64,000 nt of DNA, taken from assembly GCA_036826295.1 (NCBI GenBank), contig DAISWO010000002.1, positions 77,963 to 141,962 of the forward strand. The letters run 5' to 3'. Under the pieces are notes generated by a model that was not told the origin of the DNA, searched no databases, and saw nothing but the letters and a program-made list of their open reading frames with translations. This document shows positions 9,239 through 38,020 of the stretch, piece by piece. Position 1 is the stretch's first letter, and every line of letters starts with the position of its first letter. The position numbers and the translations under genes were made by a program. The DNA comes from Candidatus Saccharimonadota bacterium. Lineage in GTDB: Bacteria > Patescibacteriota > Saccharimonadia > Saccharimonadales > JAGQNJ01.

Positions 9239-9260
9239 AATATTTAAAGGGGAAACTATT

Positions 9261-9521
9261 ATGTCAGAACCAGAACTAATAACTGAAAGAATTACGGCAG
9301 GCTTGCCGGCTCGGATAGAATCAATACCAAACGGATTACTTAATGCTCTCGGACAAGGAGTAATCAAAAACTCTGATTTAGTGCCAAATATTGTAGCTCA
9401 GATAAGCAGCGGCAATCGCCCAGACGTTGATCCGCCGTTGAATATTCACGAACAAGTAGCCCGCACTAAGCACATAAATCAGTTAGCATCTAACTGCGTC
9501 GCGCAGTTTTTAACACAATAA
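9261..9521 (+). CDS. hypothetical protein (86 aa)
   Basis: ORF with AGGGGA-like SD 8 nt upstream; no motif. Confidence 0.4.
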   Translation: MSEPELITERITAGLPARIESIPNGLLNALGQGVIKNSDLVPNIVAQISSGNRPDVDPPLNIHEQVARTKHINQLASNCVAQFLTQ

Positions 9522-10910: not shown

Positions 10911-11939
10911 ATGAGTAAACCAGTAATTTTAACAGGCCTAAGGGCCAACAACGATTTGCACCTTGGCAGTTACCTAGGCGCGATGTTGCCTATGGCGCAA
11001 ATGCAAAAGAAATATGGTGAAACCTATCAGTTGAATATGTTTATCCCGGATTTGCATAGTTTTACGACACCTATCGATCACAGTAAGCTATACGAGCAAT
11101 CAATCCACAATATAAAGCTGTTTATTGCATCTGGTTTAGACATTAACCACCCAGAAACATATATTTACAGACAAAGTCGGGTATCCGCGCACAGCGAGCT
11201 TACAGTGATACTTAATTGTTTCACCTATATGGGCGAGATGCAACGCATGACTCAGTTTAAAGAAAAAAGCGCAAAATCGGACTCTGTCTCTGTAGGGCTA
11301 TTTGACTATCCCGTGCTTATGGTCGCAGACATTCTTTTGTATGGCGCTAAATACGTACCAGTAGGCGCCGATCAAACACAACATGTAGAGCTGGCCCGCG
11401 ATATTGCAATACGAATGAACAACAAATTCAACCGAGAATTGTTCGTTTTACCGGAAGCCGAAAAAGAACAAATTGCTTTCGCCACTCAGGACGAGAGATT
11501 GCGTGTAAGGGATTTGCTAGATCCAACTAAAAAGATGAGCAAGTCGGACGAGACGGGTAAAGGTGTGATCTTCCTCGGTGATAGTCCTGAGACAGGTGCC
11601 AAAAAAATTATGAGCGCCACAACAGACAGTCTTAGCAAGATCAACTATGACTATCATAAACAACCAGGCATTAGCAACCTTCTAGATATTCTCAGCGCCT
11701 TAACAAATACGCCTATCAAAGAGATTGTCGCAAAGTATCAAGGTCAGACTCAATACGGCCCGCTAAAGCAAGACGTCGCAGATGCTATAAGGAACTTCTT
11801 GACAAACTTTCAATCAAAACTAGCGAAGGTAGACGAAAAAGAACTAATGGATAAGCTAGAGGCTTCAGAGAAAGCAATGAACGAAGTTGCCAACCAGACT
11901 TTACGTAAAGTTCAAGAAGCCGTTGGCCTCCGAATATAG
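10911..11939 (+). CDS. trpS: tryptophan--tRNA ligase
   Basis: Class I aaRS with HLGSYLG (HIGH-like) and KMSKSD motifs; about 340 aa, TrpRS size. Confidence 0.9.
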   Translation: MSKPVILTGLRANNDLHLGSYLGAMLPMAQMQKKYGETYQLNMFIPDLHSFTTPIDHSKLYEQSIHNIKLFIASGLDINHPETYIYRQSRVSAHSELTVILNCFTYMGEMQRMTQFKEKSAKSDSVSVGLFDYPVLMVADILLYGAKYVPVGADQTQHVELARDIAIRMNNKFNRELFVLPEAEKEQIAFATQDERLRVRDLLDPTKKMSKSDETGKGVIFLGDSPETGAKKIMSATTDSLSKINYDYHKQPGISNLLDILSALTNTPIKEIVAKYQGQTQYGPLKQDVADAIRNFLTNFQSKLAKVDEKELMDKLEASEKAMNEVANQTLRKVQEAVGLRI

Positions 11940-23606: not shown

Positions 23607-24029
23607 GTGGCTAAAAAAGTTACAGCAAATTTAAAGATGAAAATACCTGCCGGTAAAGCTAGCGCTGGACCCCCAGTTGGTTCAACTCTTGGTCAATACG
23701 GTGTTAATATGATGGATTTTGTGACACCGTTTAACGAGCAAACACGTGAGTTAAAGGGTACGGTTACAGCACATATTCAGATTTATGATGATAGGAGTAT
23801 GGATTTTAGAGTTGTCGCCGAACCTACAGATGATCTAATTCGACAAAAACTGGGTATCGACAAGGGTAGTGGTAAGCCAAATACCGAGAAAATCAGCAAA
23901 AAACTATCTGATGCACAACTTACTGAAATAGCAGAAATTAAAGCAAACGACATGAACACTGATGATATAGAAGCCGTTAAAAAAATGGTAGCGGGCACAG
24001 CCAGAAGCATGGGCGTGGAGATAGGATAG
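23607..24029 (+). CDS. rplK: 50S ribosomal protein L11 (GTG start after AAGGAG)
   Basis: KMKIPAGKASAGPPVGSTLGQYGVNMMDFVTPFNEQT. Confidence 0.93.
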   Translation: MAKKVTANLKMKIPAGKASAGPPVGSTLGQYGVNMMDFVTPFNEQTRELKGTVTAHIQIYDDRSMDFRVVAEPTDDLIRQKLGIDKGSGKPNTEKISKKLSDAQLTEIAEIKANDMNTDDIEAVKKMVAGTARSMGVEIG

Positions 24030-24033
24030 CAAT

Positions 24034-24447
24034 ATGAGTGGAAACTTTGATTTTTCAAAAGGAACTAGTCGATTCGAAAGTCGAGTAGCAGAAGGTGAAG
24101 GTGATAATACAGGAGATGTTTCTTGGTGGGGATCATTGTCACATAGTGAGGTTACGGAAGCTGCTCAGGATATTTGGCGCGCCGGACACGCTTCATGGGG
24201 CGTAACCGGTAATCCTATCGACCTTTCGAATTTCTCAAGGTTAGCAGACTCTTTTTTAGACGATAGATGGAGCCTACACGCATTGCACCTTGTAAGCAGG
24301 ATTAATCTTAAGACTGCACACCAAGCTTATGAAACTGCGCTAGAAGATAGAATAGATGAACTTGAACGCGTAGTTAGTATGGTGGATACAGGAATATCGG
24401 CAATAATCGATAAGTTCAAGCATGACCAATTTGTTGATCAAACATAG
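24034..24447 (+). CDS. hypothetical protein (137 aa) inserted between rplK and rplA
   Basis: ORF 5 nt after rplK stop; Trp-rich, no motif. Confidence 0.5.
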   Translation: MSGNFDFSKGTSRFESRVAEGEGDNTGDVSWWGSLSHSEVTEAAQDIWRAGHASWGVTGNPIDLSNFSRLADSFLDDRWSLHALHLVSRINLKTAHQAYETALEDRIDELERVVSMVDTGISAIIDKFKHDQFVDQT

Positions 24448-24511
24448 CGTATAAAACATTTAATTTGTGGGAGGTTATAAAAATGCCGATTGAACCACGA
24501 GAGGAGCTAAA

Positions 24512-25486
24512 ATGGCAGAAGCCAAAAAAACAACAAAAAAGACACCAGAACAAGAAGTAGAGATTCTTGAATCTATTAAGAAGGCCGACAAAGCCGTCGT
24601 AGACAAAGAAGCTAAAGAGATCGTTGAAGAAGAAAAGTCTGAGACTATGATCAAAAAAGCCGGAAAACACAGCGCTAAAGGTCTGAAAGAAGAGCAAGAA
24701 AAGTTAGAAAAAATTGAGCGCCAAAAGCATAAAGAAGAGCAAGAAGCCGTTTCTGAGTCAAAACCAAAAGTAATCCAGAAACCAGCACGACCGCATCATG
24801 AACGAAAAGGTAAAAAATATCGAGAAAGCTACAAACTAATCAACAAAGATACTGAATATAACCTAAATGATGCGATTGATCTTGCAAAAAAGACAAGCAA
24901 CGTTAAATTTGATGCATCTGTAGAATTACACGTAAAACTAAACGTCAACCCTAAACACGCTGATCAGAATATTCGTGAAAGTATAGTATTGCCAGCCGGA
25001 ACAGGCAAGAAAATTACTGTAGCTGTCTTTGCCGAAGCAGAAGATGCAAAAAAAGCAAAAACTGCCGGTGCGGATATCATTGGTGAAGATGATTTCTTGC
25101 AACGACTCGACAAGGGGCAATTCGATTTCGATGTACTGATCTCTACACCCAAGCTAATGGCTAGACTAGGTAAATACGCTAAAGACCTAGGGCCAAGAGG
25201 TTTAATGCCAAACCCTAAAAGTGGTACCGTCACAAAAGATGTTGCCAAAGCTGTTACTGAGTCTAAAGGTGGTAAGGTTGAATATCGTGTAGATAGTACT
25301 GGGATAGTCCACTTGGCTACTGGTAAAGTTAGCTTTAGTGACAAAGATCTTGCTCGCAATATAGACACAGTATTTGCTAGTATAAAAAACGCTAAGCCAA
25401 CCTCAATAAAAGGGACTTATGTCGATTCTATCTACATCAGTACATCAATGGGGCCAAGCATAAAAGTTGCAAACACCGTAATTTAG
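24512..25486 (+). CDS. rplA: 50S ribosomal protein L1 with roughly 95 aa Lys/Glu-rich N-terminal extension
   Basis: Canonical L1 begins near RKGKKYRESYKLINKDTEYNLNDAIDLAKK; GPRGLMPNPKSGTVT motif. Confidence 0.92.
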   Translation: MAEAKKTTKKTPEQEVEILESIKKADKAVVDKEAKEIVEEEKSETMIKKAGKHSAKGLKEEQEKLEKIERQKHKEEQEAVSESKPKVIQKPARPHHERKGKKYRESYKLINKDTEYNLNDAIDLAKKTSNVKFDASVELHVKLNVNPKHADQNIRESIVLPAGTGKKITVAVFAEAEDAKKAKTAGADIIGEDDFLQRLDKGQFDFDVLISTPKLMARLGKYAKDLGPRGLMPNPKSGTVTKDVAKAVTESKGGKVEYRVDSTGIVHLATGKVSFSDKDLARNIDTVFASIKNAKPTSIKGTYVDSIYISTSMGPSIKVANTVI

Positions 25487-25616
25487 TTTTAAAACACCCG
25501 ATTAACGCAATATAGTAAATCAAGTTGTAAAAATGATGTTGTAATAATCATCATTTGCTTGTTTGCTGTTGCCCCACCACAGTACAATATAGATATTACT
25601 AAGTGAGGGGAACAAG

Positions 25617-26330
25617 TTGTCTGTATATAGCAACACTCAAATTAATCAAGCAATAAATTATGGGCATATTGTCTGCACGCCGTTCAACCCGAAGCACGTA
25701 GCGCATGCCAGCCTAGACGTGACTCTAGGATATTACTATTATCGAACAGAAAGAGCCGGTGACCACACAATCTACAATCCATTTGATGAAGCCGATGTCT
25801 CTAGATATTTTGAAGGCCCACACAAAGCTGTACCTCATAAAAAATGGTGTGATGACAATGGAGTAAAACTTCTCAAAGGAGTGCCCGCTGATCATCCAGT
25901 AATCCCACTAAAACCCGGAGAGAGAATCCTGGCTCATACACACGAATTTTTCGGCATAAAACCACCAGGCGCATATGAACTAAAATCTCGTTCAAGTTGG
26001 GGCCGAAACGGCATAGCAGTTTGTTTTGATGCTGGTTGGGTTGATCCAGGCTATATTAATCGTTTGACATTAGAAATCTTTAATCTCAACCACAAAGAGA
26101 TCGTACTGTTGCCCGTAGGAGAACGTATCGGTCAAGCAGTATTTCATGACACCGGACAAGTTGAAGGAAACTACGGTGAAGGTCGAGAAAACGGCTTTAG
26201 CGGAAAGTACCAAAGTGGCACAGATCTAGATACCCTAATAAAAACCTGGAAACCAGAAATGATGCTACCAAAAGCGTATAAAGACAAACGCTCGTTGCCA
26301 GTAAAAATCAAAGGACTAAAAGGTGACTGA
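25617..26330 (+). CDS. dcd: dCTP deaminase/dUTPase-superfamily protein (TTG start)
   Basis: SLDVTLG.., SRSSWGRNGIAVCFDAGWVDPGYINRLTLEIFNLN, GERIGQAVF motifs of the Dcd family. Confidence 0.78.
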   Translation: MSVYSNTQINQAINYGHIVCTPFNPKHVAHASLDVTLGYYYYRTERAGDHTIYNPFDEADVSRYFEGPHKAVPHKKWCDDNGVKLLKGVPADHPVIPLKPGERILAHTHEFFGIKPPGAYELKSRSSWGRNGIAVCFDAGWVDPGYINRLTLEIFNLNHKEIVLLPVGERIGQAVFHDTGQVEGNYGEGRENGFSGKYQSGTDLDTLIKTWKPEMMLPKAYKDKRSLPVKIKGLKGD

Positions 26331-28665
26331 CATCCCACAAAACTTTGGTGGGGAAGAATCTACTAATTTAGCTAAAGGCATTTTTATCGTTATCGAGGGC
26401 ACAGACGGCTCTGGTAAGAGTACGCAATATCAGCTACTTAAAGAACATTTAGAAAGTATGGGCCACGACATTGTCCCAATACACTTCCCGCGCTACGACC
26501 AACCATCGAGTTATTTTATCAGGCAATATTTAAGCGGAGCATATGGCATGGGCGACGAAATTAATCCGTATTCTGGGTCAATATTCTACGCGCTGGATCG
26601 ATACGAGGCATCTAATGAAATACGCCAAGCACTTAGCGAGGGTAAAATTGTCCTTTGCGATAGATATGTAGGCTCGAATATGGCTCATCAAGGTACGAAG
26701 TTTGATAACCCAGCCGAGCGTAGAGGTTATTTTATTTGGCTGGACAATCTAGAATTTGGAACACTCGGCATCCCTCGTCCAGATATTAATTTTGTACTGA
26801 ATAATCCATACGACGTGATAACGTCTCGGCTAAAAAATAAACAAGAATCAAGCACACATATCAAGAAAAAAGACGTACACGAAGTGGACCCCAATCACAT
26901 CAAACGATCAATTGATGTATATCGAGACATGTGCGAATTATTCCCTAAAGACTTTGTACGCATTGACTGCGCAAGAAATGACGTTGTATTGCCAGCCGAA
27001 GAAGTCCATTCACTACTCTGGGAAAAGATTACTCCAAGATTACCTGTAATCAATCAGCCTGTTCCTGACAACGAAGATCAAGACTACATCACAAAAAACG
27101 AAAACGGCTCGTTCTCTATTACTAACGCCGGAAAAGAATTCCTTAACGATGCTATTACAAATACAGATGATAATGTCTATGCATTCACTGGCGAAAAGCT
27201 AACACCAATAACCGCAGCAGCAGCTATGGCCAGACTGAGCCGTCGAGGCGATGATATGCGCGTAACAATATTAGATGAGTTCGCAAAAAACCTTGGCAAG
27301 GACGAAGGGTTACTTAAACGCGTGATTACTGCGTACGGAGACGACTCTGTCCAACAACTTGTCGGCCAACACTTGGTGGTAGAAGAAGCGTCAAATCTAC
27401 TAACAAAAAAACTTGAGTGGGGAAGATTGGCTTCATATCTAGAACAATCAACACGTTACATTTATTTTGATCAAAAGGATAAAAACGGTCGATACAAATA
27501 TTTTACCCCGCCAGAGCTAGATGAGTTAACAAAACAAGTTTATGAACAAACGATGGATGAACTCTTTGATAATTATTCAAAACTTGCTAGTGATTTGACG
27601 GAATATGTACGAAATAAATCTACGGTTGCCGAGTCAGAACGCGATATCGCTTGGAAGGGCGCAACCCGTGCCCAAGCTTGCGATGCAATTCGTGCAGTAC
27701 TTCCAGTAGCTACAAAATCAACTGTAGGAATTTATGCGTCAGGACAAGCACTTGAAAGCCTAATAATGCATTTACAAGCTGACGAATTAGCAGAAGCAAG
27801 AACAACTGGCGATAAAATCTTAGCTGAATCTCGAAAAGTATTGCCAGCATTTTTAGAGCGCGCCGACAAGCCAGAACGAGGTGGAGCCAACATTGCTTAC
27901 AAAGCTAATACGGCAAGAAAAGTAAAAAAGCTTGCTTTAGATTACCTGCCTAACAATAACGTTGGCTCTAATGATGATGTGGTTCTGACTGATTATTGGC
28001 CAAAGAACGAGTTCGACCTAGTTGCCGACATGTTATACGATCACAGCTCGTTATCGCTTGAGGATATTCGTAGTGAGGTTTCTGACTGGCCATATGAGCG
28101 TAAAAAAGAGGTTTTTGACGCGTATGTGGGCGAAAGACTAAATCGGCGTCATAAACCCGGTAGAGCCCTAGAAAAGGCTCATTACAGCTGGGATCTTGTG
28201 TGTGATTACGGGATTTTCCGCGATTTACAGCGTCATCGTATTGTAGATGATCTAGAGTGGCAACTATTAACACCAAGATATGGTTATGAGATTCCAGAAC
28301 TTGTAGAAAAAGCCGGTTTGAGTGACCTTTTCGAACAATGCTTTGATTTAAGCCTAAAATTGTACAGCGACATGCAACAAGCTGGATATCCCCTTGAGGC
28401 CCAGTACGCAACACTCCTTGGTCACAAAATGCGCTGGAAAGTTACTTATAACGCAAGAGAAGCATTTCATTTACACGAACTGCGTACTGCGCCTCAAGGT
28501 CACCCTGGATACCGAAAGTTAGTTAAGCAAATGCACGACAAATTATGCGAGGTACACCCATCAATTGGCGTAGCCATGAAGTTTGTTAATAAAGATGAAG
28601 ATCCCGAGCTAACCAGACTAGCAGCTGAAAGATATACTCAATTTAAACTTAAAGACCTTCAGTAG
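26323..28665 (+). CDS. fusion protein: N-terminal thymidylate kinase + C-terminal extended ThyX-type (flavin-dependent) thymidylate synthase region
   Basis: Tmk P-loop IVIEGTDGSGKSTQ and DRYVGSNMAHQ; C-terminal ThyX RHR motif FRDLQRHRIVD plus HLHELRTAPQGHPGYR. Confidence 0.72.
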   Translation: MTDIPQNFGGEESTNLAKGIFIVIEGTDGSGKSTQYQLLKEHLESMGHDIVPIHFPRYDQPSSYFIRQYLSGAYGMGDEINPYSGSIFYALDRYEASNEIRQALSEGKIVLCDRYVGSNMAHQGTKFDNPAERRGYFIWLDNLEFGTLGIPRPDINFVLNNPYDVITSRLKNKQESSTHIKKKDVHEVDPNHIKRSIDVYRDMCELFPKDFVRIDCARNDVVLPAEEVHSLLWEKITPRLPVINQPVPDNEDQDYITKNENGSFSITNAGKEFLNDAITNTDDNVYAFTGEKLTPITAAAAMARLSRRGDDMRVTILDEFAKNLGKDEGLLKRVITAYGDDSVQQLVGQHLVVEEASNLLTKKLEWGRLASYLEQSTRYIYFDQKDKNGRYKYFTPPELDELTKQVYEQTMDELFDNYSKLASDLTEYVRNKSTVAESERDIAWKGATRAQACDAIRAVLPVATKSTVGIYASGQALESLIMHLQADELAEARTTGDKILAESRKVLPAFLERADKPERGGANIAYKANTARKVKKLALDYLPNNNVGSNDDVVLTDYWPKNEFDLVADMLYDHSSLSLEDIRSEVSDWPYERKKEVFDAYVGERLNRRHKPGRALEKAHYSWDLVCDYGIFRDLQRHRIVDDLEWQLLTPRYGYEIPELVEKAGLSDLFEQCFDLSLKLYSDMQQAGYPLEAQYATLLGHKMRWKVTYNAREAFHLHELRTAPQGHPGYRKLVKQMHDKLCEVHPSIGVAMKFVNKDEDPELTRLAAERYTQFKLKDLQ

Positions 28666-28978
28666 GGATTTGGTAGTTAACCTGTGAGAGCGTTTGGTCA
28701 TCGCTAAAGAATCTGACAACATCTAATACGAGTTCTCCTACCGCAAGAACACGATCGGGATTATCAATACTACAAGGCGTGATATCAGCCTCGTATTGAA
28801 AAACTTCGTGAGCAATAGCGTGAATAGGATCTTCGCCAACCATAAAAACCCCTACAAGGGGTCTACTCGGTGCCTCGCCATAGGCGATTCTTTTAACATT
28901 CATATAGACATCGAACCCCATTCGTTGTCCTCTGCTTTCTATAGAATCATCGGGCCTAGGTAATCTTATTAGTGACAT
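28649..28978 (-). CDS. hypothetical protein (109 aa)
   Basis: ORF only; convergent overlap with the tmk-thyX stop. Confidence 0.5.
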   Translation of the reverse strand: MSLIRLPRPDDSIESRGQRMGFDVYMNVKRIAYGEAPSRPLVGVFMVGEDPIHAIAHEVFQYEADITPCSIDNPDRVLAVGELVLDVVRFFSDDQTLSQVNYQIPTEGL

Positions 28979-29169
28979 AATATCCTCATTAAAAAGGCCT
29001 CCGTTTTTGTGGAGGCCAGTCTTTCGTTCTTTATTGCTTTATCGCAATCGGCCTCCACGCATATCGCCACAAATGATCACTCGATTTGTGAGCATTGTTT
29101 TATGGCTATATTTAACCGGACGTATTAATTTATTCATACCGCAATTAAAATTACTCCTATAAAAAGGGG

Positions 29170-29197
29170 TTGTCAAGATTATTTTTTATGATAAATT
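29170..29197 (+). promoter_or_regulatory. promoter of Leu leader (TTGTCA, 16 nt spacer, TGaTAAATT)
   Basis: -10 ends about 9 nt before ATG 29207, implying a leaderless or near-leaderless leader peptide. Confidence 0.5.
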
Positions 29198-29206
29198 ATA
29201 TATCTA

Positions 29207-29284
29207 ATGACTACAAAATCGTTGAAGCAACAAAACCTGCTACTCAGCCTACAAGGGTTGTGCTTCAACATGGTTGAAGCCTAA
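29207..29284 (+). CDS. Leu-rich leader peptide MTTKSLKQQNLLLSLQGLCFNMVEA (25 aa)
   Basis: Hand translation; codons 11-15 are CTG CTA CTC AGC CTA; overlaps attenuator segments 1-3. Confidence 0.7.
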   Translation: MTTKSLKQQNLLLSLQGLCFNMVEA

Positions 29285-29342
29285 GCGAATAACTCGCTTC
29301 TAGCACAACCGACATCAAACGGCTTCAACGAAGCCGTTTTTT
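29221..29342 (+). promoter_or_regulatory. four-segment transcription attenuator upstream of the leuA-like gene
   Basis: Seg1 GTTGAAGCA 29221-29229. Seg2 TGCTTCAAC 29261-29269. Seg3 GTTGAAGCC 29273-29281. Seg4 GGCTTCAAC 29321-29329, inside terminator AAACGGCTTC-aac-GAAGCCGTTT+TTT 29317-29342. Confidence 0.8.
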
Positions 29343-29360
29343 AAATAATAAGGAGCTAAA

Positions 29361-30644
29361 ATGAGTTTTGAACAAGTAGATGTACATATTTTTGACACAA
29401 CTTTACGTGATGGGGCCCAATCGTTACCTAGAGACCATCAGTTTCCTGTAGGTTCGAGGACAGAAATTGCTGATAAGATAGCCGGCTTAGGCGTTGGTGA
29501 AATCGAAGCTGGGTTTCCCGTCACACCAGGCGATGCGACTGAAGTAGAAGAGGTTGCTAGAACAATTGGCAATAAAGCCTATTCTGTCTCTCGATGGGAA
29601 CAAGCAGAGCTATCGGGAGAAGTTACGCGACCACCTGTTATTGCGGGCCTATCTCGTACAACTCAAGGTGATATCGAAGCAACATGGGAGGCAATCCAAT
29701 ACGCATCTCGCCCACGAATACATACTTTTGTCTCGACAGATCCAGAGCATATGGCCGCAAAGTTTCCAGGAAAGTCTCAGACCCAAGTACTAAATATGGG
29801 AAGAGATGCTATCCGTATGGCACGGGATTTTTCAGATGAGCATACCGGAGCTTCAGTAGAATTTTCCGCGGAAGCTGCTAGTACAACTGATACCGAATAT
29901 TTAGAAAGAGTAATTAGGACAGCGGTGTCAGAAGGAGCTGATATAATCAATCTTCCAGATACCGTAGGACAAAGAAATCCATTTTGGATGAAAGATTTTT
30001 ACTCTAAAGCTATCGAGTGGATTCGTTCAGAGAATCCTGACGTAGTAATCTCCGCGCACAACCATAACGATTTAGGGATGGCTGCCGCGAATAGCTATGC
30101 TTTATTGTTAGCCGCCGCAGATGCTGCACAAAAATCACAGTCCAGAGTCAATATACAAATCGAAGGAACAATTTGTGGCTTAGGCGAACGCGCAGGTAAT
30201 GCAGACATCTTCACTGTGATGGGAGAGATCTATAAGTTTGTTGGTGACTTGGCAGTACCGGTTACATGGGGCTTTAATCCAGAAAAGTCAGTCCAAATAG
30301 CAAATGATGTAATGGGTTACGCAGGATTAAGTGTTGATCGACAGAATCCTATTGTTGGCCGAGACACAATGGTACATCGATCCGGAATCCACAGCGATGG
30401 TGTAATTAAGGGTGGTCATCAAATATACACTCCACATGACCCTACTTTCTGGGGCCACAGAGAACAAGCCGTCCACGAAGAAGGACGATATCAAGGCAAA
30501 GCAGGTCGTGCCGCCGCGAGAAAATCAATTTCACAAATTGGCGCATCCGACTTAAGGGAAGTAATAGATGGAACCGTGAACCCAGACGAACACGATTACG
30601 ACGGATTCGAAAATGAACTAAGAGCCGCTGGCGTCACTATTTGA
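29361..30644 (+). CDS. leuA: 2-isopropylmalate synthase/homocitrate synthase-family (HMGL-like) enzyme, short form
   Basis: FDTTLRDGAQS, EAGFP, HNHNDLGMAAANS, HRSGIHSDG motifs; 427 aa, apparently lacking the usual LeuA C-terminal regulatory domain. Confidence 0.8.
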   Translation: MSFEQVDVHIFDTTLRDGAQSLPRDHQFPVGSRTEIADKIAGLGVGEIEAGFPVTPGDATEVEEVARTIGNKAYSVSRWEQAELSGEVTRPPVIAGLSRTTQGDIEATWEAIQYASRPRIHTFVSTDPEHMAAKFPGKSQTQVLNMGRDAIRMARDFSDEHTGASVEFSAEAASTTDTEYLERVIRTAVSEGADIINLPDTVGQRNPFWMKDFYSKAIEWIRSENPDVVISAHNHNDLGMAAANSYALLLAAADAAQKSQSRVNIQIEGTICGLGERAGNADIFTVMGEIYKFVGDLAVPVTWGFNPEKSVQIANDVMGYAGLSVDRQNPIVGRDTMVHRSGIHSDGVIKGGHQIYTPHDPTFWGHREQAVHEEGRYQGKAGRAAARKSISQIGASDLREVIDGTVNPDEHDYDGFENELRAAGVTI

Positions 30645-30669
30645 CATTAATCGACACAGAAATTATGAT
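30641..30669 (+). promoter_or_regulatory. TTGACA, 17 nt spacer, TATGAT promoter overlapping the leuA-like stop
   Basis: read directly; would start transcription near ATG 30677. Confidence 0.45.
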
Positions 30670-30727
30670 TGATGATATGAATATTTCAATTATTCAAATT
30701 ATTGAAGGGACCGTAAGCGCGGAGTAG
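30665..30727 (+). CDS. Ile-rich mini-ORF MIDDMNISIIQIIEGTVSAE (or leaderless MNISIIQIIEGTVSAE from 30677)
   Basis: Hand translation; all Ile codons are ATT; stop lies 3 nt after GCGCGG (30717-30722), which can pair with the terminator 5' arm. Confidence 0.5.
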   Translation: MIDDMNISIIQIIEGTVSAE

Positions 30728-30751
30728 TGTTAGTTTTACAAAAAAAACAAA

Positions 30752-30773
30752 CCCCGCGCCAAGCGGGGTTTTT
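30752..30773 (+). terminator. Rho-independent terminator / attenuator
   Basis: CCCCGC-gccaa-GCGGGG + TTTTT; CCGCGC 30754-30759 is complementary to 30717-30722. Confidence 0.75.
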
Positions 30774-30845
30774 AAATTTTCGAAGGAGTTTACCATTAGC
30801 CCTAACCATGAATTACTAGATTACAGCACACCCGACCACGATGCA

Positions 30846-31163
30846 GTGTTAGCCGTTCGAGGGGTTAGTTTTGAAGAGCGAGAACGCATAGCCCAAGAGT
30901 TGGCCCAATTTATGATAGGTGGTTTTAGCGCAGAGCAGCTCATTATAGCGACTTCAGCCATCGATCAACTCTATTCCAGAGCATCCGCAGGTAAAAATTA
31001 CACGCATTCTGAAGCAGATGTTTTTGCTAGAGCCGCAATATTTGCAGTGCAAACTCGAGGTATACCCGAACAAGGCTTAATAGTCGATAAGATCAAACGA
31101 AATCGTAATAGATCGCTAGGCAAACCAGGCAAAGCCGAAGTTCAAGAGTTGCAAAACATTTGA
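30846..31163 (+). CDS. hypothetical protein (105 aa from GTG; frame also open from ATT 30795, 6 nt after GAAGGAG)
   Basis: ORF; start codon uncertain. Confidence 0.4.
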   Translation: MLAVRGVSFEERERIAQELAQFMIGGFSAEQLIIATSAIDQLYSRASAGKNYTHSEADVFARAAIFAVQTRGIPEQGLIVDKIKRNRNRSLGKPGKAEVQELQNI

Positions 31164-31310
31164 CACCGACGCTTTACTCTGTTAAGATTGCATAGTTAAT
31201 TACCAAAGACAGCGATGGTCGCACGCGACTTAATCATATCGCCGAGGCAAAAACATCAACTTTTTGTATCGTACGTTTTTAAAAGTCTTTGGTAACCCAA
31301 AGGCTTTTTT
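31160..31310 (+). promoter_or_regulatory. rplJ promoter and L10-leader-like attenuator
   Basis: TTGACA 31160-31165, 17 nt spacer, TAAGAT 31183-31188. Long-range helix TTACCAAAGAC 31200-31210 / GTCTTTGGTAA 31285-31295 competes with terminator 31284-31305 + T-run. Confidence 0.6.
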
Positions 31311-31356
31311 AGTCTTCGTACATTGAAATGAATAAAATAATCAAAGAAAGGAAGAT

Positions 31357-31887
31357 ATGGCTTTAACAAAAGATCAAAAGAAAGATGTTGTTGAAGAAGT
31401 GTCTAACTTGCTTGAGAATTCAAAATTAACTGTTATCGCAGAGTACAAAGATACTAGCGTTAAACAATTACAACAGCTAAGAAAAAACGCTCGAGAAAGC
31501 GAAACTTTAGTTAAAGTAATCAAAAACCGTCTAGTGATCAAAGCTATCAAGCAAAGCGAACGGTATAGTGACGTTGATACAGCCAGTATTACCGGACAAC
31601 TATTGTACGCGTTTAACTCTGTTGACGAAGTTGCACCGGCTCAAAGCTTGGCTACTTTTGCAAAAAGTAACCCAAGTATAAAGTTTGTTGGCGGAATTAC
31701 ATCTGATGGTCAGCTAATAAGCGCCGACGATGTAGCAGCCCTAGCAGCTTTGCCAAGCAAAGATCAGTTGCGTGCACAGTTAGTTGGTACAATCGCAGCT
31801 CCACTAAGTGGATTCATGAATGTACTTTCAGGCAACGTTAGAGGTGTACTAAATGTTCTTCAAGCGAGAGCAGATTCAATTAATTAA
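31357..31887 (+). CDS. rplJ: 50S ribosomal protein L10
   Basis: MALTKDQKKDVVEEVSNLLENSKLTVIAEYKDTSVKQLQQLRK. Confidence 0.94.
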   Translation: MALTKDQKKDVVEEVSNLLENSKLTVIAEYKDTSVKQLQQLRKNARESETLVKVIKNRLVIKAIKQSERYSDVDTASITGQLLYAFNSVDEVAPAQSLATFAKSNPSIKFVGGITSDGQLISADDVAALAALPSKDQLRAQLVGTIAAPLSGFMNVLSGNVRGVLNVLQARADSIN

Positions 31888-31911
31888 GTAATAAATAGTA
31901 GGAGAAATTAA

Positions 31912-32334
31912 ATGAGCGAAGAAGTAAATAAGAGCGAAGATAAAAAAGTAGAGACTCCAAAAGAGTTCGAAAAACTAGTTTCAGAACTAGACAAAATGTC
32001 AGCACTAGAAATTAGCAAATTTGTTAAGTTTCTAGAAGAGTATTGGGGCGTAAGTGCAGCAGCACCAGCAGTAGCTATGGCAGCAGCACCAGCAGGCGGT
32101 GACGCACCAGCAGAAGAAGAAAAATCTGAGTACGACGTTATTCTAAAAGACGCAGGCGCACAGAAAGTTGCAGTTATTAAAGCTGTTAAAGATATAACTG
32201 GCCTTGGTCTTGGCGAAGCAAAAGCAGTTGTTGACGGTGCTCCAAAACCAGTACTAGAAAAAGCTAAAAAAGAAGACGCTGATAACGCTAAAAAAGCATT
32301 GGAAGATGCTGGCGCAACAGTAGAACTAGCTTAA
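31912..32334 (+). CDS. rplL: 50S ribosomal protein L7/L12
   Basis: Ala-rich hinge [15 protein letters not shown]; [28 protein letters not shown]. Confidence 0.95.
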
Positions 32335-32356
32335 ACCCGATCAGAAAAACTCGATT

Positions 32357-32845
32357 ATGGTAAGACGACATAAATTAGCAGCAATTGGATTTAGTCTTGC
32401 TTTAACAGCTGGTAGTTGCTCTAGTGGCGAAGGATTACCTGCAGCTGAAACTCAACCGGCCCCTACTGAGGGCAGGAGTCTATTTGACCCGCTATACACG
32501 GCGGGTTGTGTTGCTGATGTGGTCGGAGACTTAACTTTATCGAATTTCGGCCTCTTAAAAGCCGAAGACGATCTAGTAGGTGAGTCGAATGGACAAGTTA
32601 TCTACAGAGCTGCAAGAGAGCTAGCAACACCTTTATGTGGGCTTGTCTATGCTGATCCCGACCATCGCGATATTCACTTATCTCTAGAGTCTGCCGATTG
32701 CATAAATTTTCAAGATAGGGCAGCGGCTGTGATTATAGCAACGGTCGTCGAAAACAATACTGAGGAAAGCTTTCCTGCTGTACTGGGTCAAGAAATAGCG
32801 TTCCCTGAAGCTAGCTTTGGCGAACCGCGCTGCAACAGCCAATAG
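32357..32845 (+). CDS. putative lipoprotein (162 aa) on a visibly GC-richer insert
   Basis: MVRRHKLAAIGFSLALTAGSCSSGEG signal/lipobox-like; bracketed by the rplL 3'-end duplication. Confidence 0.55.
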   Translation: MVRRHKLAAIGFSLALTAGSCSSGEGLPAAETQPAPTEGRSLFDPLYTAGCVADVVGDLTLSNFGLLKAEDDLVGESNGQVIYRAARELATPLCGLVYADPDHRDIHLSLESADCINFQDRAAAVIIATVVENNTEESFPAVLGQEIAFPEASFGEPRCNSQ

Positions 32846-32914
32846 ATTATGCGTGTTTCTACGGTGAGTTTTTTATACCATGTTTTTAGCTGTAACCCAT
32901 TTCAACCCTTCATT

Positions 32915-32967
32915 GATAACGCTAAAAAAGCATTGGAAGATGCTGGCGCAACAGTAGAACTAGCTTA
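32915..32967 (+). repeat. 53-nt exact duplicate of the rplL 3' end (32281-32333); here ends in TAG instead of TAA
   Basis: GATAACGCTAAAAAAGCATTGGAAGATGCTGGCGCAACAGTAGAACTAGCTTA occurs twice. Confidence 0.92.
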
Positions 32968-33096
32968 GTTTTTAGATAAAATCAGTAAAACAACCAAAAA
33001 GTTGTCCACAGGTTTTTTGACTATTACTATCATTAATGATATTTTAATGGTAACAGTACTGCAATAATAAAAAGTACGTGTAAAGAGACAAACAAA

Positions 33097-33606
33097 ATGG
33101 CGGATGTATCAGATAAACAAATAAAAAGATTAAAAATACTACTTCAAGAGTCGGAGACGAGTCTAGCGGCGGCTAAAGAATTGTTAGTCAGTCTTATAGG
33201 CGACGATGACAGTGCGCCAGTTATTCCTAGCGAAGATATAGCTGGAAAGATCATTGAAGGAGTTTTTGACGGGCAAAACATGGTCGGAAGTGACGGCAAG
33301 ACATATCCAGTGCCAGCTAACTACGCATCAAAGTCAAAACTAGTAGAGGGTGACATCCTAAAGCTTACAATCGCTGACGACGGAGCATTTCTTTACAAGC
33401 AAATTGGCCCAGTGGCTAGAACCCAAAAAGTCGGAACCCTAGTCATGGAGAGCGGCCATTACTTTGTAAATGTCGATAAGCAAAAATACCGCGTACTTCT
33501 CGCTAGCGTTACCTACTTCAAAGCAAAACCGGGTGATCAAGTCAGTATCAACGTTCCTGAAAGCAACGATAACGCCGAATGGGCCGCACTCGAAGCCGCA
33601 CTATAA
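33097..33606 (+). CDS. hypothetical protein (169 aa)
   Basis: ORF only. Confidence 0.55.
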   Translation: MADVSDKQIKRLKILLQESETSLAAAKELLVSLIGDDDSAPVIPSEDIAGKIIEGVFDGQNMVGSDGKTYPVPANYASKSKLVEGDILKLTIADDGAFLYKQIGPVARTQKVGTLVMESGHYFVNVDKQKYRVLLASVTYFKAKPGDQVSINVPESNDNAEWAALEAAL

Positions 33607-33679
33607 ATCTAGAGACTTCTGTTTAGTGTTTTTTATACAATCATATTCGCATAACAATTGACGTATAATATATAACCCG

Positions 33680-35110
33680 ATGGGGGAAGCATTATACCGA
33701 AAACATCGGTCAAAATCTTTGGATGAGATTGTTGGCCAAGAACACATTACTACGACACTTAGTAATGCTATTAAATCTGGCAAAATTAGTCACGCTTATC
33801 TACTCACCGGCCCAAAAGGTGTAGGCAAAACAAGTGTAGCGCGAATACTGGCCCACGCTGTCAACGAACTCGATTATCAACCAGATGCTGGCCCAAAATA
33901 CATAGATATTATCGAAATTGACGCTGCCAGTAACCGACGTATCGACGAAATTAGAGAACTACGAGAAAAAGTTCAAACAGCCCCAACATCCTCAAAGTAT
34001 AAAGTCTACATCATTGACGAAGTCCACATGCTAACTCGCGAGGCATTCAACGCCCTACTAAAAACGCTAGAAGAACCACCGGCCCACGCGATATTCATAC
34101 TGGCGACAACCGAAGCCCACAAACTACCTGAGACCATCATCAGCAGAACACAGCACTTCAGCTTTAAACCGATATCGAGCGAAGACCTAATATCGCACTT
34201 GGCTCAAATTGCAAAAACTGAAAAAATCGATATCGACGACGAAGCATTGAAGGTAATCGCATCCTATGGCAGAGGTAGCTTCAGGGATAGCATTAGTCTA
34301 CTAGACCAACTTAGTTCCTCGGGATCGAAAATCACAGCTAAAGACGTACAAGAAGCCGTTGGGATTGCTCCATCAGAAATTATTAGTAGCATTATCAATT
34401 CTATTTCGGCTCATGACCAAAAATCCCTGCTAACAACAATCGATGATATTGAGTCGCAGAACCTAGATACTGCTATTGTTGCAAGTAGTTTAATCGAATC
34501 GCTTCTCCAATCCGTCAGGAATAACAATAACAACCTTTCAAAAAAAACATTGTTATGGCTAGTTAATGAACTTACATCAGTCCAAAAATCGCCAAACCCA
34601 GATATTCGCTTAGAAATAATTCTACTTGAAGCCGTCTGGGGCGAACAAGTTAACACAAAGCCCAAAACACCAGAGGCACAATCAGCCCCCATAAATGAGG
34701 CGACACCAAAAACCGAAGCTAAAATTGAAAAACCAGTACAAAAACCGGCGGAATCGGTTCAAAAACCCGCTCAAAAAACTGACGATCTATGGACTAGAGT
34801 AATCGCTATGTTAAAAGGTAAACATAATACACTTTACGGCGTAGCAAGAATGGCAAACCCAGAAATCGGAAAAGACCGAATAAAATTAATCTTCAAACAC
34901 GATTTTCACAAACGGCGCTGTGGCGAACCTCGAAACAAAAAAATATTACAAGATACCCTTCAAGAACTTTCAGGCCAATCATTTGAAATCGAGTTTATTA
35001 CAGACAAATCTGCGCCTACTCCAAAGCTAGAAACACAAGAGCCCAAGCCATCTGATACACTAGATACAATAACTAATGTTTTTGGTGGTGGGGAAGTATT
35101 GGAAGATTAA
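33680..35110 (+). CDS. dnaX: DNA polymerase III gamma/tau subunit
   Basis: GPKGVGKTSVARILA, DEVHMLT, NALLKTLEEPPAHAIFILATTE, SRTQHFSF. Confidence 0.93.
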   Translation: MGEALYRKHRSKSLDEIVGQEHITTTLSNAIKSGKISHAYLLTGPKGVGKTSVARILAHAVNELDYQPDAGPKYIDIIEIDAASNRRIDEIRELREKVQTAPTSSKYKVYIIDEVHMLTREAFNALLKTLEEPPAHAIFILATTEAHKLPETIISRTQHFSFKPISSEDLISHLAQIAKTEKIDIDDEALKVIASYGRGSFRDSISLLDQLSSSGSKITAKDVQEAVGIAPSEIISSIINSISAHDQKSLLTTIDDIESQNLDTAIVASSLIESLLQSVRNNNNNLSKKTLLWLVNELTSVQKSPNPDIRLEIILLEAVWGEQVNTKPKTPEAQSAPINEATPKTEAKIEKPVQKPAESVQKPAQKTDDLWTRVIAMLKGKHNTLYGVARMANPEIGKDRIKLIFKHDFHKRRCGEPRNKKILQDTLQELSGQSFEIEFITDKSAPTPKLETQEPKPSDTLDTITNVFGGGEVLED

Positions 35111-36472
35111 ATGAGCCCTACCCAAAATAACCCAAGAATACCCCCACAGAATACCGACGCCGAAGCCAGCTTACTCGGGGCCATACTAATTGATAGTGAC
35201 GCTATCGTTAAGATTGCCGACCAACTGAGCCCTGACGATTTTTACGACGACAAGCACAAAATCATTTTCGAGAACGTAAAAATCCTCTATGACAAACATA
35301 GTCCAATAGACGTATTAACCTTAACTAATCAATTAAGAGCTCATAATGTCCTAGATTCCGTCGGTGGCTCTTCGTATTTGAGCGAACTGACTAATTATGT
35401 GCCAACCGCTGCTCACGTGGAACAATATTCTGAAATTGTGTCCCAAAAAGCCTTGAGACGTCGGCTAATCCAGAACAGTCAAAACATCGTGAATCTCGGT
35501 TATGACGAGACAAAAAACCTGCAAGAACTAATCGAACAGTCCGAAAAAGAATTATTCGAGACCAGCCACCGCTACGTTGGACAAAATGTTGTCAGCTTAG
35601 AAGAAATCCTGTCAGAATCTTTTGATAGATTAGACGAACTCCATAAAGACAAAGGCAAAATTCGCGGTGTGCCGACCGGATTCCGCGACCTTGATAAAAT
35701 CCTAGCAGGTCTTCAACGCTCTGACCTGTTCATTCTTGCCGCCCGTCCATCTATGGGAAAGACCGCGCTAGCATTAAACCTAGCCCATAATGTCGCTTCA
35801 AAATCAGGTGAGCCCGTACTACTCTTCAGCTTAGAAATGAGCAAAGAACAGCTAGTTGATCGATTGCTAGCGATGGAGTCAGGCGTCGATGCTTGGGCGC
35901 TTAGAACAGGTAATCTAACAGACTCGGATTTTGAAAAAATTGGTCAGGCTATGGGCACGTTAGGCGAGGCTCCGATCTTTATTGACGACAGTCCTGGTAT
36001 TACAGTTAGCGACCTTCGGACCAAATCACGTCGAGAAGCCCACAAAAGACCGATTGGATTAATCATCATCGACTATTTACAGCTAATGAGCGGTGGCGGT
36101 CGCTATAACGAAGGCAACCGCGTGCAAGAAATCTCTGAAATCTCTAGAGGGATAAAAGGGATAGCCCGTGAGCTTAATGTACCAGTGATTGCCCTCAGCC
36201 AGTTGAGTCGTTCAGTAGAGAGTAGAAGCCCACAGATACCTCAACTAGCCGACCTGCGTGAATCTGGGTCAATTGAGCAAGATGCTGACGTCGTAGCCTT
36301 TATGTACCGTGAGGATTACTACAAACCAGACACTGAAAGACGAAATATCACAGATATCTTAATCAAAAAACATCGAAACGGGCCGGTAGGTACTGTAGAG
36401 CTATACTTCGACAAAGAGCATCAACGCTTTAGATCTCTAGACAAAAAGCATGATCAACCATTTTCGGACTAG
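35111..36472 (+). CDS. dnaB: replicative DNA helicase DnaB
   Basis: PPQNTDAEASLLGAILID; ARPSMGKTALALN Walker A; IIDYLQLM; ALSQLSR. Confidence 0.95.
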   Translation: MSPTQNNPRIPPQNTDAEASLLGAILIDSDAIVKIADQLSPDDFYDDKHKIIFENVKILYDKHSPIDVLTLTNQLRAHNVLDSVGGSSYLSELTNYVPTAAHVEQYSEIVSQKALRRRLIQNSQNIVNLGYDETKNLQELIEQSEKELFETSHRYVGQNVVSLEEILSESFDRLDELHKDKGKIRGVPTGFRDLDKILAGLQRSDLFILAARPSMGKTALALNLAHNVASKSGEPVLLFSLEMSKEQLVDRLLAMESGVDAWALRTGNLTDSDFEKIGQAMGTLGEAPIFIDDSPGITVSDLRTKSRREAHKRPIGLIIIDYLQLMSGGGRYNEGNRVQEISEISRGIKGIARELNVPVIALSQLSRSVESRSPQIPQLADLRESGSIEQDADVVAFMYREDYYKPDTERRNITDILIKKHRNGPVGTVELYFDKEHQRFRSLDKKHDQPFSD

Positions 36473-36507
36473 ACTGCTATTCATAGTGGTATACTGGTAC
36501 CAATAAC

Positions 36508-37683
36508 ATGGGCAAACTCAAGAGTATCTTACGTCAAAACTGGCTTACTGTAATTATTTTTGTTGCAGTAGTAGTTGGTGGACTATTTGCGGTCTTCAAC
36601 CAACTATCTACGATACCGCCAGGAATCTCCTCGCCTGAAAGAGCCTTTATCAAATCTTCCCTGAGCCTAGAATCCATCACCGACAATCCCCTAAACGCCC
36701 CAATAAAACTATTGTTTTTCGTAGTCAATCAACTAAATCTTGACTCTATAACGGTCTACAGGGGGCTATCGGGAGTTTTTGGGGTAATATTTCTTATCTG
36801 CTTTTACAACTATCTTAAACATTTTCAGACTCGCAGAGTATCATTACTTGCAACCATCCTGCTGTTTACTAGTAGCTGGTTCCTTCATAACACACGACTT
36901 GCGCTTGCTAACATCCTCTTGCCATTATCTGTAATGATAATACTAATGTCGGCCCGAAAACTTCAACAATCAAGCAATACAGCAATAATTAGTGTCTTGC
37001 TGGGGATAGTTCTGGGCTTATCTCTGTATGTCCCAGCAGCTGCATCGGTCGCGCTGTTAGTGCTAATATTCGGACTAAAAACCAAGAAAACCAAGCTGAA
37101 ATTTAAACATTTATCTTCGTTTTTTATTTCGTTAACCATAACTATAGCTCCACTGATTTATGCGAGTACCCAAAACGTTGAGCTAATTTATGGCATCTTC
37201 GGATTACCTCAGACATTTCTACCAATAGAATGGCTAAAGCGAGTCTTGGCAATTCCAATCTTTCTATTCGCCAAAGGACCTCTTAATCCAGTCACTAATT
37301 TAGCTAGGCTTCCGATACTTGACGTTTTTAGTAGCGCACTCTTAGTCTTAGGTGTCTACGCCGCCTACTTCAAGGTAAAACAACCTCACTTTCGGCATAT
37401 TATCTTGGCGCTAATAGCGTCGTTTGTTCTAATCGCCTTAAACGGCGAAAGTCTACTTCCGGTGATTATGCCAATTATCTACATCGTGCTTTCTTACGGT
37501 ATCGCTATCATATTGCAACAATGGTTAACCGTCTTTCCTAAAAATCCACTAGTAAAAAATATCGGGATATTCATTGTAGTTATTTCGCTATCCTTCATTA
37601 GCTTTTATCATCTAAAGCGATACTTTATAGCCTGGCCAAACTCTCCAACTACAAAAATTGTATTTCGGCCACATATAGACTGA
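36508..37683 (+). CDS. polytopic membrane protein, possibly GT-C/PMT-ArnT-like glycosyltransferase
   Basis: About 10 predicted TM helices by eye; function tentative. Confidence 0.4.
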   Translation: MGKLKSILRQNWLTVIIFVAVVVGGLFAVFNQLSTIPPGISSPERAFIKSSLSLESITDNPLNAPIKLLFFVVNQLNLDSITVYRGLSGVFGVIFLICFYNYLKHFQTRRVSLLATILLFTSSWFLHNTRLALANILLPLSVMIILMSARKLQQSSNTAIISVLLGIVLGLSLYVPAAASVALLVLIFGLKTKKTKLKFKHLSSFFISLTITIAPLIYASTQNVELIYGIFGLPQTFLPIEWLKRVLAIPIFLFAKGPLNPVTNLARLPILDVFSSALLVLGVYAAYFKVKQPHFRHIILALIASFVLIALNGESLLPVIMPIIYIVLSYGIAIILQQWLTVFPKNPLVKNIGIFIVVISLSFISFYHLKRYFIAWPNSPTTKIVFRPHID

Positions 37684-37726
37684 GTATTTGGTACAATATA
37701 GGTACGAAGATTAAAGAGGAGAAAAC

Positions 37727-38020
37727 GTGAGTAAATTTGATCAAGCAAAAATGCTACTGAAAGTAAAAAAACTTCAAAAAGAGCTATCAAAACAAGTAAT
37801 CGAAGTTGAAGCAGGTGACGGGGCGGTTAAAGTCGAAATCACTGGTGAGCAAAAAATTAAAAAGATTCATATAGATCCAGAGTATGTTGATCTTGATGAT
37901 ATCGGCCAATTAGAAAAATGGGTAGAAGAAGCCGTGAAAGAAGCGATTGCCGAGAGCCAAAAAATAGCCGCCGAAAAAATGCAACCAATGATGGGTGCGT
38001 TAGGCGACCTAGGACTGTAA
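37727..38020 (+). CDS. ybaB: YbaB/EbfC nucleoid-associated protein (GTG start)
   Basis: AKMLLKVKKLQKELSKQVIEVEAGDGAVKVEITGEQKIKKIHIDPE; precedes recR as usual. Confidence 0.88.
   Translation: MSKFDQAKMLLKVKKLQKELSKQVIEVEAGDGAVKVEITGEQKIKKIHIDPEYVDLDDIGQLEKWVEEAVKEAIAESQKIAAEKMQPMMGALGDLGL

Follow-up and report, generated by a model that had tools for sequence, protein, structure and literature searches.

A likely isoleucine-codon attenuator on a leaderless transcript in Saccharibacteria

Leaderless ilvL, leuL and trpL attenuators have been described in Streptomyces (PMC8079986), and in Streptomyces and Corynebacterium such leaders are found with ilvL before ilvBHC or ilvBNC, leuL before leuA and trpL before trpE (PMC8079986, PMC1262725, PMC11857589, PMC3890552). 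The present study concerns a comparable arrangement in a 64,000-nucleotide (nt) stretch of DNA from a Candidatus Saccharimonadota bacterium (contig DAISWO010000002.1, positions 77,963 to 141,962), referred to throughout as the window. Here, a region at 30641-30800 on the plus strand lies between a leuA-like gene and a small gene for a protein of 122 amino acids (aa). Judged by sequence comparison, this region is a real, selected cis-regulatory unit, and we consider it likely, from its conservation and from modelled RNA folding, that it is a ribosome-mediated leader-peptide transcription attenuator which senses charged tRNA-Ile on a leaderless transcript. No family of Rfam 15 reaches its gathering score in 30600-30850, and the best plus-strand scores at the unit are at chance level (Trp_leader, 19.6 bits vs 41, E 1.1; Leu_leader, 15.4 vs 50, E 9.4).

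The unit opens with a sigma-70-type promoter (30641-30669) composed of TTGACA (30641-30646), a 17-nt spacer and TATGAT (30664-30669), the stop codon of the leuA-like gene (TGA, 30642-44) falling within the -35 box. With 11 of 12 consensus positions it is the top promoter-like site within 14 kb (24000-38000), and as the number of promoter-like sites in that interval equals the shuffle expectation, the match alone proves nothing. An ATG located 7 nt after the -10 hexamer, without a Shine-Dalgarno (SD) sequence, begins a leader open reading frame (ORF) of 16 codons (30677-30727, MNISIIQIIEGTVSAE and a stop codon), in which the run I-S-I-I-Q-I-I (30683-30703) has Ile at five of its seven residues, all five encoded by ATT (at 30683, 30689, 30692, 30698 and 30701). 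The last codons and the TAG stop (30725-27) overlap the 5' strand of a predicted antiterminator (30716-30726, core GCGCGG at 30717-22), the 3' strand of which (30750-30760, core CCGCGC at 30754-59) comprises the end of the terminator 5' arm and the first loop bases. The intrinsic terminator (30749-30773), AAACCCCGC, loop GCCAA and GCGGGGTTT, pairs CCCCGC (30752-57) with GCGGGG (30763-68) and runs into a T tract (30769-73); counting the flanking A/T pairs its stem has 9 bp, 6 of them G-C, at -17.9 kcal/mol. The start of the downstream gene follows (30782-30797), with the SD sequence GAAGGAG (30782-88), 6 nt, and an ATT start codon (30795-97).

Much of this had been pointed out in a sequence-only reading of the same DNA, and the promoter, the five ATT-encoded Ile residues and the complementarity of GCGCGG to CCGCGC within the terminator 5' arm are present as it described them. 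It placed the stop codon 3 nt after GCGCGG, a gap that is in fact two nucleotides (AG), and it offered two starts for the mini-ORF, at ATG 30665 and at ATG 30677. Both triplets exist, but only the second is conserved. The upstream ATG belongs to the -10 hexamer, and six variants (L161, L168, L169, L173, L174 and L177) do not have it; we therefore take the leader ORF to be 30677-30727.

Loci from relatives were retrieved with the leuA-like protein and the downstream unknown ORF as handles. They yielded a set of eight distinct full-length versions of the unit (window, L001, L161, L168, L169, L173, L174 and L177) and a truncated one, L167; leaders of this kind are called type W, and their covariance model R2. 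The leader peptide, MNISIIQIIEGTVSAE in the window, reads MYIAIIQIIGGTVSAE in L001, MYIAIIQIIEGTVSAE in L161-166, MAKIIIIQIIEGTVSAE in L168, MGKIIIIEIIEGTVSAE in L169/170, MTRSMIVKIIDNPLTRD in L173, MTCAIIIEIIEETPTRA in L174 and MAQTTIIKIIRDSV in L177, while L167 breaks off after MHISI, where the contig ends. TTGACA is invariant in the eight variants and in L167, on or beside the stop codon of the upstream gene, and is followed in all of them, at 16-17 nt, by a TAnnnT-like -10 box (TATGAT, TATTAT, TAAGAT, TAACAT, TAGGAT, GATGCT, TATATT or TAAAAT). From this hexamer to the ATG the distance is exactly 7 nt, with no SD sequence, in 10 of 10 leaders downstream of a leuA-like gene, a constancy which suggests that the transcript is probably leaderless.

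The mini-ORF is intact in all eight variants and changes its length in multiples of 3 only; the stop codon and a G+C-rich hairpin with a T tract are equally constant. The N-terminal codons, the C-terminal half of the peptide, the spacer to the terminator and the terminator sequence are variable, the N-terminus or C-terminal half of the peptide being altered in five of the eight. Within the peptide, a core of ATT-ATT-NAR-ATT-ATT (II-x-II) is found in seven variants and IV-x-II (ATT-GTT) in L173. Extra ATA or ATT codons extend the run to IIIIQII in L168 and to IIIIEII in L169, and the extra Ile codons of these two and of L174 correspond to Ser or Asn residues of the window peptide, with Ser/Ala-to-Ile gains among the variants. 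Such positions change either synonymously (ATT/ATA) or so as to create Ile, and the indel between ATG and core measures 3 nt. It is the amino acid that appears to be selected at these positions and not a fixed string. In four loci (L004, L005, L175 and L176) both the mini-ORF and a terminator are missing behind the leuA-like gene, and in L005 and L176 the promoter on the stop codon leads directly into the L10 leader. Since the terminator occurs only at loci with the mini-ORF, it travels with the latter and not with the leuA-like gene.

The 105-nt transcript folds at -27.1 kcal/mol (z = -3.09) with the terminator dominant, and when the RNA is cut before the terminator 3' arm the minimum free energy structure contains GCGCGG:CCGCGC. 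For each variant, a duplex test identified the leader stretch that pairs best with the terminator 5' arm and loop. In eight of eight, this stretch sits on the stop codon (-9..+1, -8..+1, -6..+8 or +1..+15 nt), the window duplex, at -9..+1 relative to the stop, reaching -14.2 kcal/mol. The pairing is achieved by three solutions: GCGCGG:CCGCGC in the window group and L177, GCGGG:CCCGC in L173, and GGGCG:CGCCC in L174, where a changed terminator loop supplies the partner. Dinucleotide shuffles gave an equal or better antiterminator in 6 (window), 4 (L173), 7 (L174) and 0 (L177) of 2000 cases (at most 0.35%). A ribosome was then modelled with a footprint that extends at most 12 nt beyond the first base of its A-site codon, the RNA being folded up to the terminator loop. 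Placed on the first or the last Ile codon, it is predicted to leave 8-13 nt of arm and loop sequestered (-11.5 to -15.1 kcal/mol) in all eight variants; placed at the stop codon, it leaves 0 nt sequestered in all eight. The sequence-only reading had treated conservation of the mini-ORF as decisive, and had proposed that ribosome position on it chooses between antiterminator and terminator. The mini-ORF is conserved in the eight variants, the complementarity is kept as a pairing, and the modelled switch, eight of eight against none, lends support to the proposal.

We propose the following scheme. Transcription would begin some 7 nt beyond TATGAT, on the A of ATG 30677 or beside it, and a 70S ribosome would load on the leaderless 16-codon ORF as it emerges; the start at this ATG, translation of the mini-ORF, coupling of transcription to translation and the response to Ile-tRNA are steps that we infer. 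With plentiful Ile-tRNA the ribosome would reach TAG 30725 and cover GCGCGG (30717-22), allowing the CCCCGC/GCGGGG hairpin with its U tract to form and halting RNA polymerase near 30773. With scarce Ile-tRNA it would stall at any one of the AUU codons (five, 30683-30703) with its front edge short of 30717, and GCGCGG would pair with CCGCGC (30754-59) once the 5' arm has been made. The terminator would then be blocked and transcription would continue into the 122-aa gene (30795-31163) with its SD sequence and AUU start. The same hairpin would also end the leuA-like transcripts, because nothing terminates them earlier.

The gene that would be regulated had been annotated from GTG 30846 as encoding 105 aa, and several observations place its start further upstream. 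The frame is open from 30777, both other frames being full of stops. Across the 17 codons from ATT 30795 to GTG 30846, comparison with L161 shows 1, 2 and 7 changes at codon positions 1, 2 and 3 (6 synonymous, 2 non-synonymous), and comparison with L168 shows 2 synonymous changes only. L161, L168 and L169 keep both the SD sequence and the ATT start, with the spacing unchanged. Four members of the 122-aa family (83, 126, 127 and 127 aa) were all that a profile search recovered from 1.84 billion representatives, and the start of one homologue, P0124 (MSFNHNSLEYSTPDHEAA), aligns residue for residue with the window protein (ISPNHELLDYSTPDHDAV), its ATG falling on the window ATT. From this position and the codon evolution, the gene is taken to be 30795-31163 with an AUU start, as the sequence-only reading had suspected. 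That reading had also called the gene uncharacterised, which still holds: the protein has no Pfam or NCBIfam match, and its AF2 model, a helical bundle with a basic tail (predicted local distance difference test score 71.7), finds no significant Foldseek match in the PDB (best E 0.43). Going by these searches, the family is very small and found only in Saccharibacteria.

In the recovered contexts, the 122-aa family always stands behind a type-W leader (window, L161-166, L168, L169/170 and L173), in L173 as a 134-aa member after an extra 61-aa ORF. The converse does not hold, as L001 keeps the leader with an unrelated 199-aa ORF downstream. Besides this ORF, the small ORFs of 69 aa in L002, of 112 and 159 aa in L003 and of 75 aa in L177 behind the leaders are unrelated to the 122-aa family. 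In two of the relatives, genes of branched-chain amino acid metabolism stand behind the leaders. In L174 the type-W leader precedes RidA and threonine dehydratase (PALP and Thr_dehydrat_C, 499 aa), followed by the L10 leader. L002 has a longer, paralogous leader (MVYNRVKQLVIIILGRQGLCFTMVEASEQ) with ATT ATT ATT in the same position, behind which are found the 69-aa ORF, the large (594 aa) and small (ACT_AHAS_ss) subunits of acetolactate synthase and RidA; the same paralogous leader occurs in L003 with the run VVII. L175 lacks a second leader; its leuA-like gene runs on directly into ridA and ilvA, and in the leader upstream the Leu run is interrupted by an Ile (LLILLSL). The leaders before ridA-ilvA (L174) and before ilvBN-ridA (L002) provide a biological reason for the Ile codons.

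A sister leader precedes the leuA-like gene itself. This unit (29170-29342, plus strand), which we call type C, contains the Leu-codon leader MTTKSLKQQNLLLSLQGLCFNMVEA with its stop codon (29207-29284) and a terminator at about 29317-29342. A Leu leader is present upstream of the leuA-like gene in 16 of 16 genomes checked, and its run (LLLSL, LLLGL, LLLRL and others) is written with varied Leu codons across them. Type C, whose covariance model is R1, comprises window 29203-29345 before the leuA-like gene, L002 1514-1664 before ilvBN-ridA and L003 7195-7342, and an alignment of 18 sequences (A5) was used for the structural comparisons. In A5 the terminated state consists of an outer helix (GGGCTGTG/CACAGCCC), two inner hairpins, so forming a three-way junction, and the terminator; it is 83% paired, and its covariation exceeds that of each of 500 shuffles. 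Pairing reaches 100% in the outer helix, where five CG-to-UA changes occur. For the antiterminator TTGAAGCC:GGCTTCAA the figure is 93%, vs at most 56% when slid, and RNAalifold returns this pairing as the consensus structure. The paralogous leader of L002 and L003 is homologous at the nucleotide level to the window leader at 29203-29345. On this comparative evidence, the same genomes carry a well-supported Leu attenuator, the codon run of which appears to have been exchanged for Ile in a paralogue.

Type C and the Ile unit of the window share more than their occurrence in the same genomes. Common to both are a promoter on the leuA-like stop codon (for type C, in L002 and L003), the spacing of -10 box, 7 nt and ATG, an Ile run written with ATT alone, and a stop codon near an antiterminator strand that is complementary to the terminator 5' arm. 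They differ in that type C has the three-way junction and the TTGAAGCC:GGCTTCAA pairing, whereas the Ile unit is about 40 nt shorter, has no junction and pairs GCGCGG with CCGCGC. R1 scores the Ile unit (30661-30776) at 13.6 bits (E 0.24, not significant) against 140.1 bits for the true member at 29203-29345, and MAFFT aligns the two poorly. Common descent is plausible and the Ile leader may be a shortened type-C derivative; we treat it as a separate family, type W.

Scans with R1 and R2 revealed no significant further copy of either leader type in the window, nor, for type W, in the recovered loci. Among the weak hits, one at 56366-56538 proved to be a tandem duplication, a 57-nt unit repeated within the intergenic region 56428-56545 (ggggtttgaaatactttttggttgtattgatgctgataaaaaatcaatactaccctg). 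Those at 9076-9263 mark a third leader-like unit (9076-9260), in which TTGACA overlaps the stop codon of the upstream ORF and a mini-ORF (MLRNIINSTYWFTSKYSWRQTSYCL and a stop codon) carries two Trp and three Tyr codons. TGGCGG inside this mini-ORF is complementary to the 5' arm of a terminator, CCGCC-acaca-GGCGG-T6, after which come an SD sequence and an 87-aa ORF; a class-Ib tRNA synthetase of TrpRS size lies 1.7 kb downstream (10911-11939). In a homologue of the third unit, L033 5769-5905, a Leu run (MLRSFINKTALVNLGLLLGLDFTWRQ and a stop codon) precedes a LeuA paralogue.

Several observations weigh against the attenuator explanation of the Ile unit. All 37 core Ile codons of the type-W and the L002/L003 leaders are ATT, while the genes of the window use 40% ATT, 31% ATC and 29% ATA, and the string ATTATT-NAR-ATTATT is near-invariant as a nucleotide sequence. 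A GAU anticodon that decodes AUU more slowly, the need for an unstructured stretch, or a ligand that acts at the nucleotide level could each account for the restriction to ATT. The variants share ancestry and hence are not independent samples. With a core of no more than 5-6 bp that closes a loop of about 31 nt, the antiterminator is much weaker than the terminator (about -14 vs -17.9 kcal/mol), and would thus need to win kinetically by forming first, as in the trp operon. Its pairing bases are invariant within the closest group (window, L001, L161, L168 and L169); the covariation comes from three variants at greater distance and is in part out of register in the alignment. Classical attenuators have a 1:2 protector hairpin, of which no conserved counterpart was seen here; what remains is a minimal two-state attenuator, which could work provided that ribosomes load directly at the 5' terminus of a leaderless RNA. 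Finally, the gene behind the leader in the window is without known link to isoleucine, and no ilv gene stands there.

Other explanations were considered. The element could be an orphan that acts in trans, its terminated transcript of about 97 nt as a small RNA (sRNA) and/or its 16-aa product as a micropeptide, with downstream control incidental. Attenuator-derived sRNAs and a trans-acting leader peptide are documented for Sinorhizobium trpL (PMC7968998, PMC7298713). Such a role would suit a leader that is near-invariant in the window, L001, L161, L168 and L169 even though ilv genes are absent here, and that stays constant where the downstream gene differs, as with the 199-aa ORF of L001. The peptide is, however, unconserved outside its Ile core (EGTVSAE, DNPLTRD, EETPTRA, RDSV), and the 122-aa family directly behind the leader in the window, L161, L168 and L169 (in L173 after one ORF) argues for control in cis. 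We regard this explanation as improbable.

The main rival to codon sensing is a protein-binding site, AUUAUU-NAR-AUUAUU or its DNA form at +7 to +27, at which an attenuation protein or repressor would decide and the reading frame would be secondary. The near-invariant core nucleotides in the eight variants, the exclusive use of ATT where ATC and ATA together make up 60% in window genes, and the form of the motif, a direct repeat with 9-nt spacing, are what such a site would look like. Unlike TRAP or PyrR sites, however, the repeat does not overlap the antiterminator strand, being situated 14 nt upstream of it, and the extra Ile codons of L168, L169 and L174 keep the identity of the amino acid and not the nucleotide motif. 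The paralogous leaders of L002 and L003 have ATT ATT(ATT) without the repeat, and the sister leader in the same genomes has a Leu run with freely varying codons, as expected of codon sensing. Such a site would, moreover, leave no role for the spacing of 7 nt between -10 box and ATG or for the position of the stop codon over the antiterminator. A binding site in place of codon sensing is quite improbable on this evidence.

It is very unlikely that the hairpin is a plain terminator of the leuA-like gene, the promoter an ordinary or chance one and the Ile-rich mini-ORF an accident of AT-rich intergenic DNA: although the hairpin is the first terminator after that gene and must end its transcripts too, promoter-like sites are no more frequent than in shuffles, and ATT is the commonest Ile codon in an AT-rich region, this explanation is already largely refuted by conservation, as the ORF, the 7-nt start spacing, the Ile core and the stop on the antiterminator strand are kept in eight variants while the rest diverges freely, there would be no point in placing a plain promoter about 100 nt ahead of a strong terminator, the terminator is likewise missing from the loci that lack the mini-ORF (L004, L005, L175 and L176), and at least 99.65% of shuffles give a weaker antiterminator.

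Further candidates for the region were rejected. A bidirectional terminator would require the A run before the hairpin, which is not kept in L161 and L169, and no minus-strand gene converges on it. Two minus-strand ORFs (30686-30796 and 30699-30809) and a minus-strand promoter-like site (30689-30662) were taken as chance occurrences. A small hydrophobic toxin does not fit a peptide of 14-17 aa that is not hydrophobic throughout and is unconserved outside the Ile core. Phage origin was ruled out, as megablast of 29300-31400 against phage records gave no match and the gene content is that of a small bacterial genome.

The window has about 42% G+C and encodes SecY, RpoA, L1, L10, L7/L12 and other ribosomal proteins, DnaB, CysRS and five tRNAs. 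The nearest public genomes are metagenome-assembled genomes of Candidatus Saccharibacteria / Saccharimonadales, with identities of neighbouring proteins of 93% (L001) and 59-64% (L002-L005). Locally, rplA (24512-25486) is followed by dcd, a tmk-thyX fusion (thymidylate kinase-ThyX, 780 aa; 26323-28665), the leuA-like gene of the HMGL family (29361-30644, plus strand), the Ile leader unit and the 122-aa ORF. The downstream boundary of the unit is set by a separate plus-strand promoter, TTGACA-17-TAAGAT (31160-31188), which is followed by the L10 leader RF00557 (31185-31320, plus strand; 63.3 bits vs a gathering score of 44) and rplJ-rplL. In this clade rplA and rplJ, normally adjacent, are about 6 kb apart (window 24512-31887; L173-L177); the insert consists of dcd, the tmk-thyX fusion, the leuA-like gene and a variable slot, which across relatives holds ridA-ilvA, ilvBN-ridA or small hypothetical ORFs. 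The overlap of a -35 TTGACA with the TGA stop of the preceding gene occurs three times in the window (30642-30646, 31160-31165 and 9076-9081; ATTTGACA), and TTGACA also sits on the leuA-like stop in L001, L002, L003, L005, L173, L174 and L176.

The leuA-like protein matches the catalytic part alone of 2-isopropylmalate synthase models (246 bits vs a cut-off of 532) and is without the C-terminal regulatory domain. A metagenome scan with this protein gave relatives at about 35% identity only and no useful loci. In L168 (1-1628), the gene before the Ile leader is a full-length LeuA of 524 aa (552.6 bits, above the NCBIfam cut-off of 532) and not the short 427-aa enzyme; upstream of it lies the 3' end of a type-C Leu leader (L168 1-39, R1 32.5 bits).

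Saccharibacteria are usually described as unable to make amino acids. Some of them seem to keep regulated pieces of the branched-chain pathway (leuA-like, ridA-ilvA, ilvBN) in a fixed rplA-rplJ slot, and in the window genome the Ile leader is detached from isoleucine biosynthesis genes and attached to a small protein of no recognisable family. The element might be the local version of an ilv-type leader, the ilv genes having been lost or replaced in this lineage so that the leader would now control a small protein. In its widest form, which we put forward tentatively and hold to be possible rather than probable, the idea is that Saccharibacteria carry modular leaderless attenuators with swapped codons (Leu, Ile and possibly Trp/Tyr at 9076-9260), the Ile sensor being re-used for the 122-aa family where ilvA or ilvBN was lost. 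If true, the 122-aa protein would be part of the isoleucine-starvation response of an epibiont, for example in acquiring Ile from its host.

The favoured attenuator would represent a known mechanism in a phylum where apparently no such regulation has been reported. The full-text literature yielded no paper linking Saccharibacteria to leader peptides, attenuation or isopropylmalate synthase, although coverage was incomplete and this is absence of evidence only. As the mechanism is textbook, the gain is one of breadth and annotation and not of principle. The unit offers sequence-level evidence that a member of the Candidate Phyla Radiation may sense amino-acid supply via coupled transcription and translation, and suggests that Saccharibacteria use leaderless mRNAs, sigma-70-type promoters and an AUU start codon. 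Neither leader type is in Rfam; models of the R1 and R2 kind could allow their annotation throughout Patescibacteria. Which amino acid the codon run encodes may then serve as a functional hint for hypothetical genes behind such leaders, the 122-aa family being an example.

Among the described systems, the enterobacterial attenuators (ilvGMEDA/ilvL, leu RF00512, trp RF00513, thr, his and pheA) share the proposed logic, in which ribosome position selects antiterminator (2:3) or terminator (3:4), segment 2 being covered once the ribosome has reached the stop codon. The window unit differs from these by scores below the Rfam thresholds, by the lack of a conserved 1:2 hairpin and of an SD sequence for the leader, and by an antiterminator core of 5-6 bp. 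The leaderless attenuators of actinobacteria are likened to it by architecture and not by sequence similarity. The window unit belongs to another phylum (Saccharibacteria/Patescibacteria), has a pure Ile run (4-6 Ile) where theirs mix Ile, Val and Leu, is not placed before an ilv gene, and has a leaderless start that is deduced from the constant 7-nt spacing. The likeness extends to an ORF of 12-18 codons without a 5' untranslated region, codons for the end product, and a hairpin with U tract before branched-chain amino acid genes; there, too, a Leu version (LLLS) stands before leuA and an Ile/Val/Leu version before ilvB.

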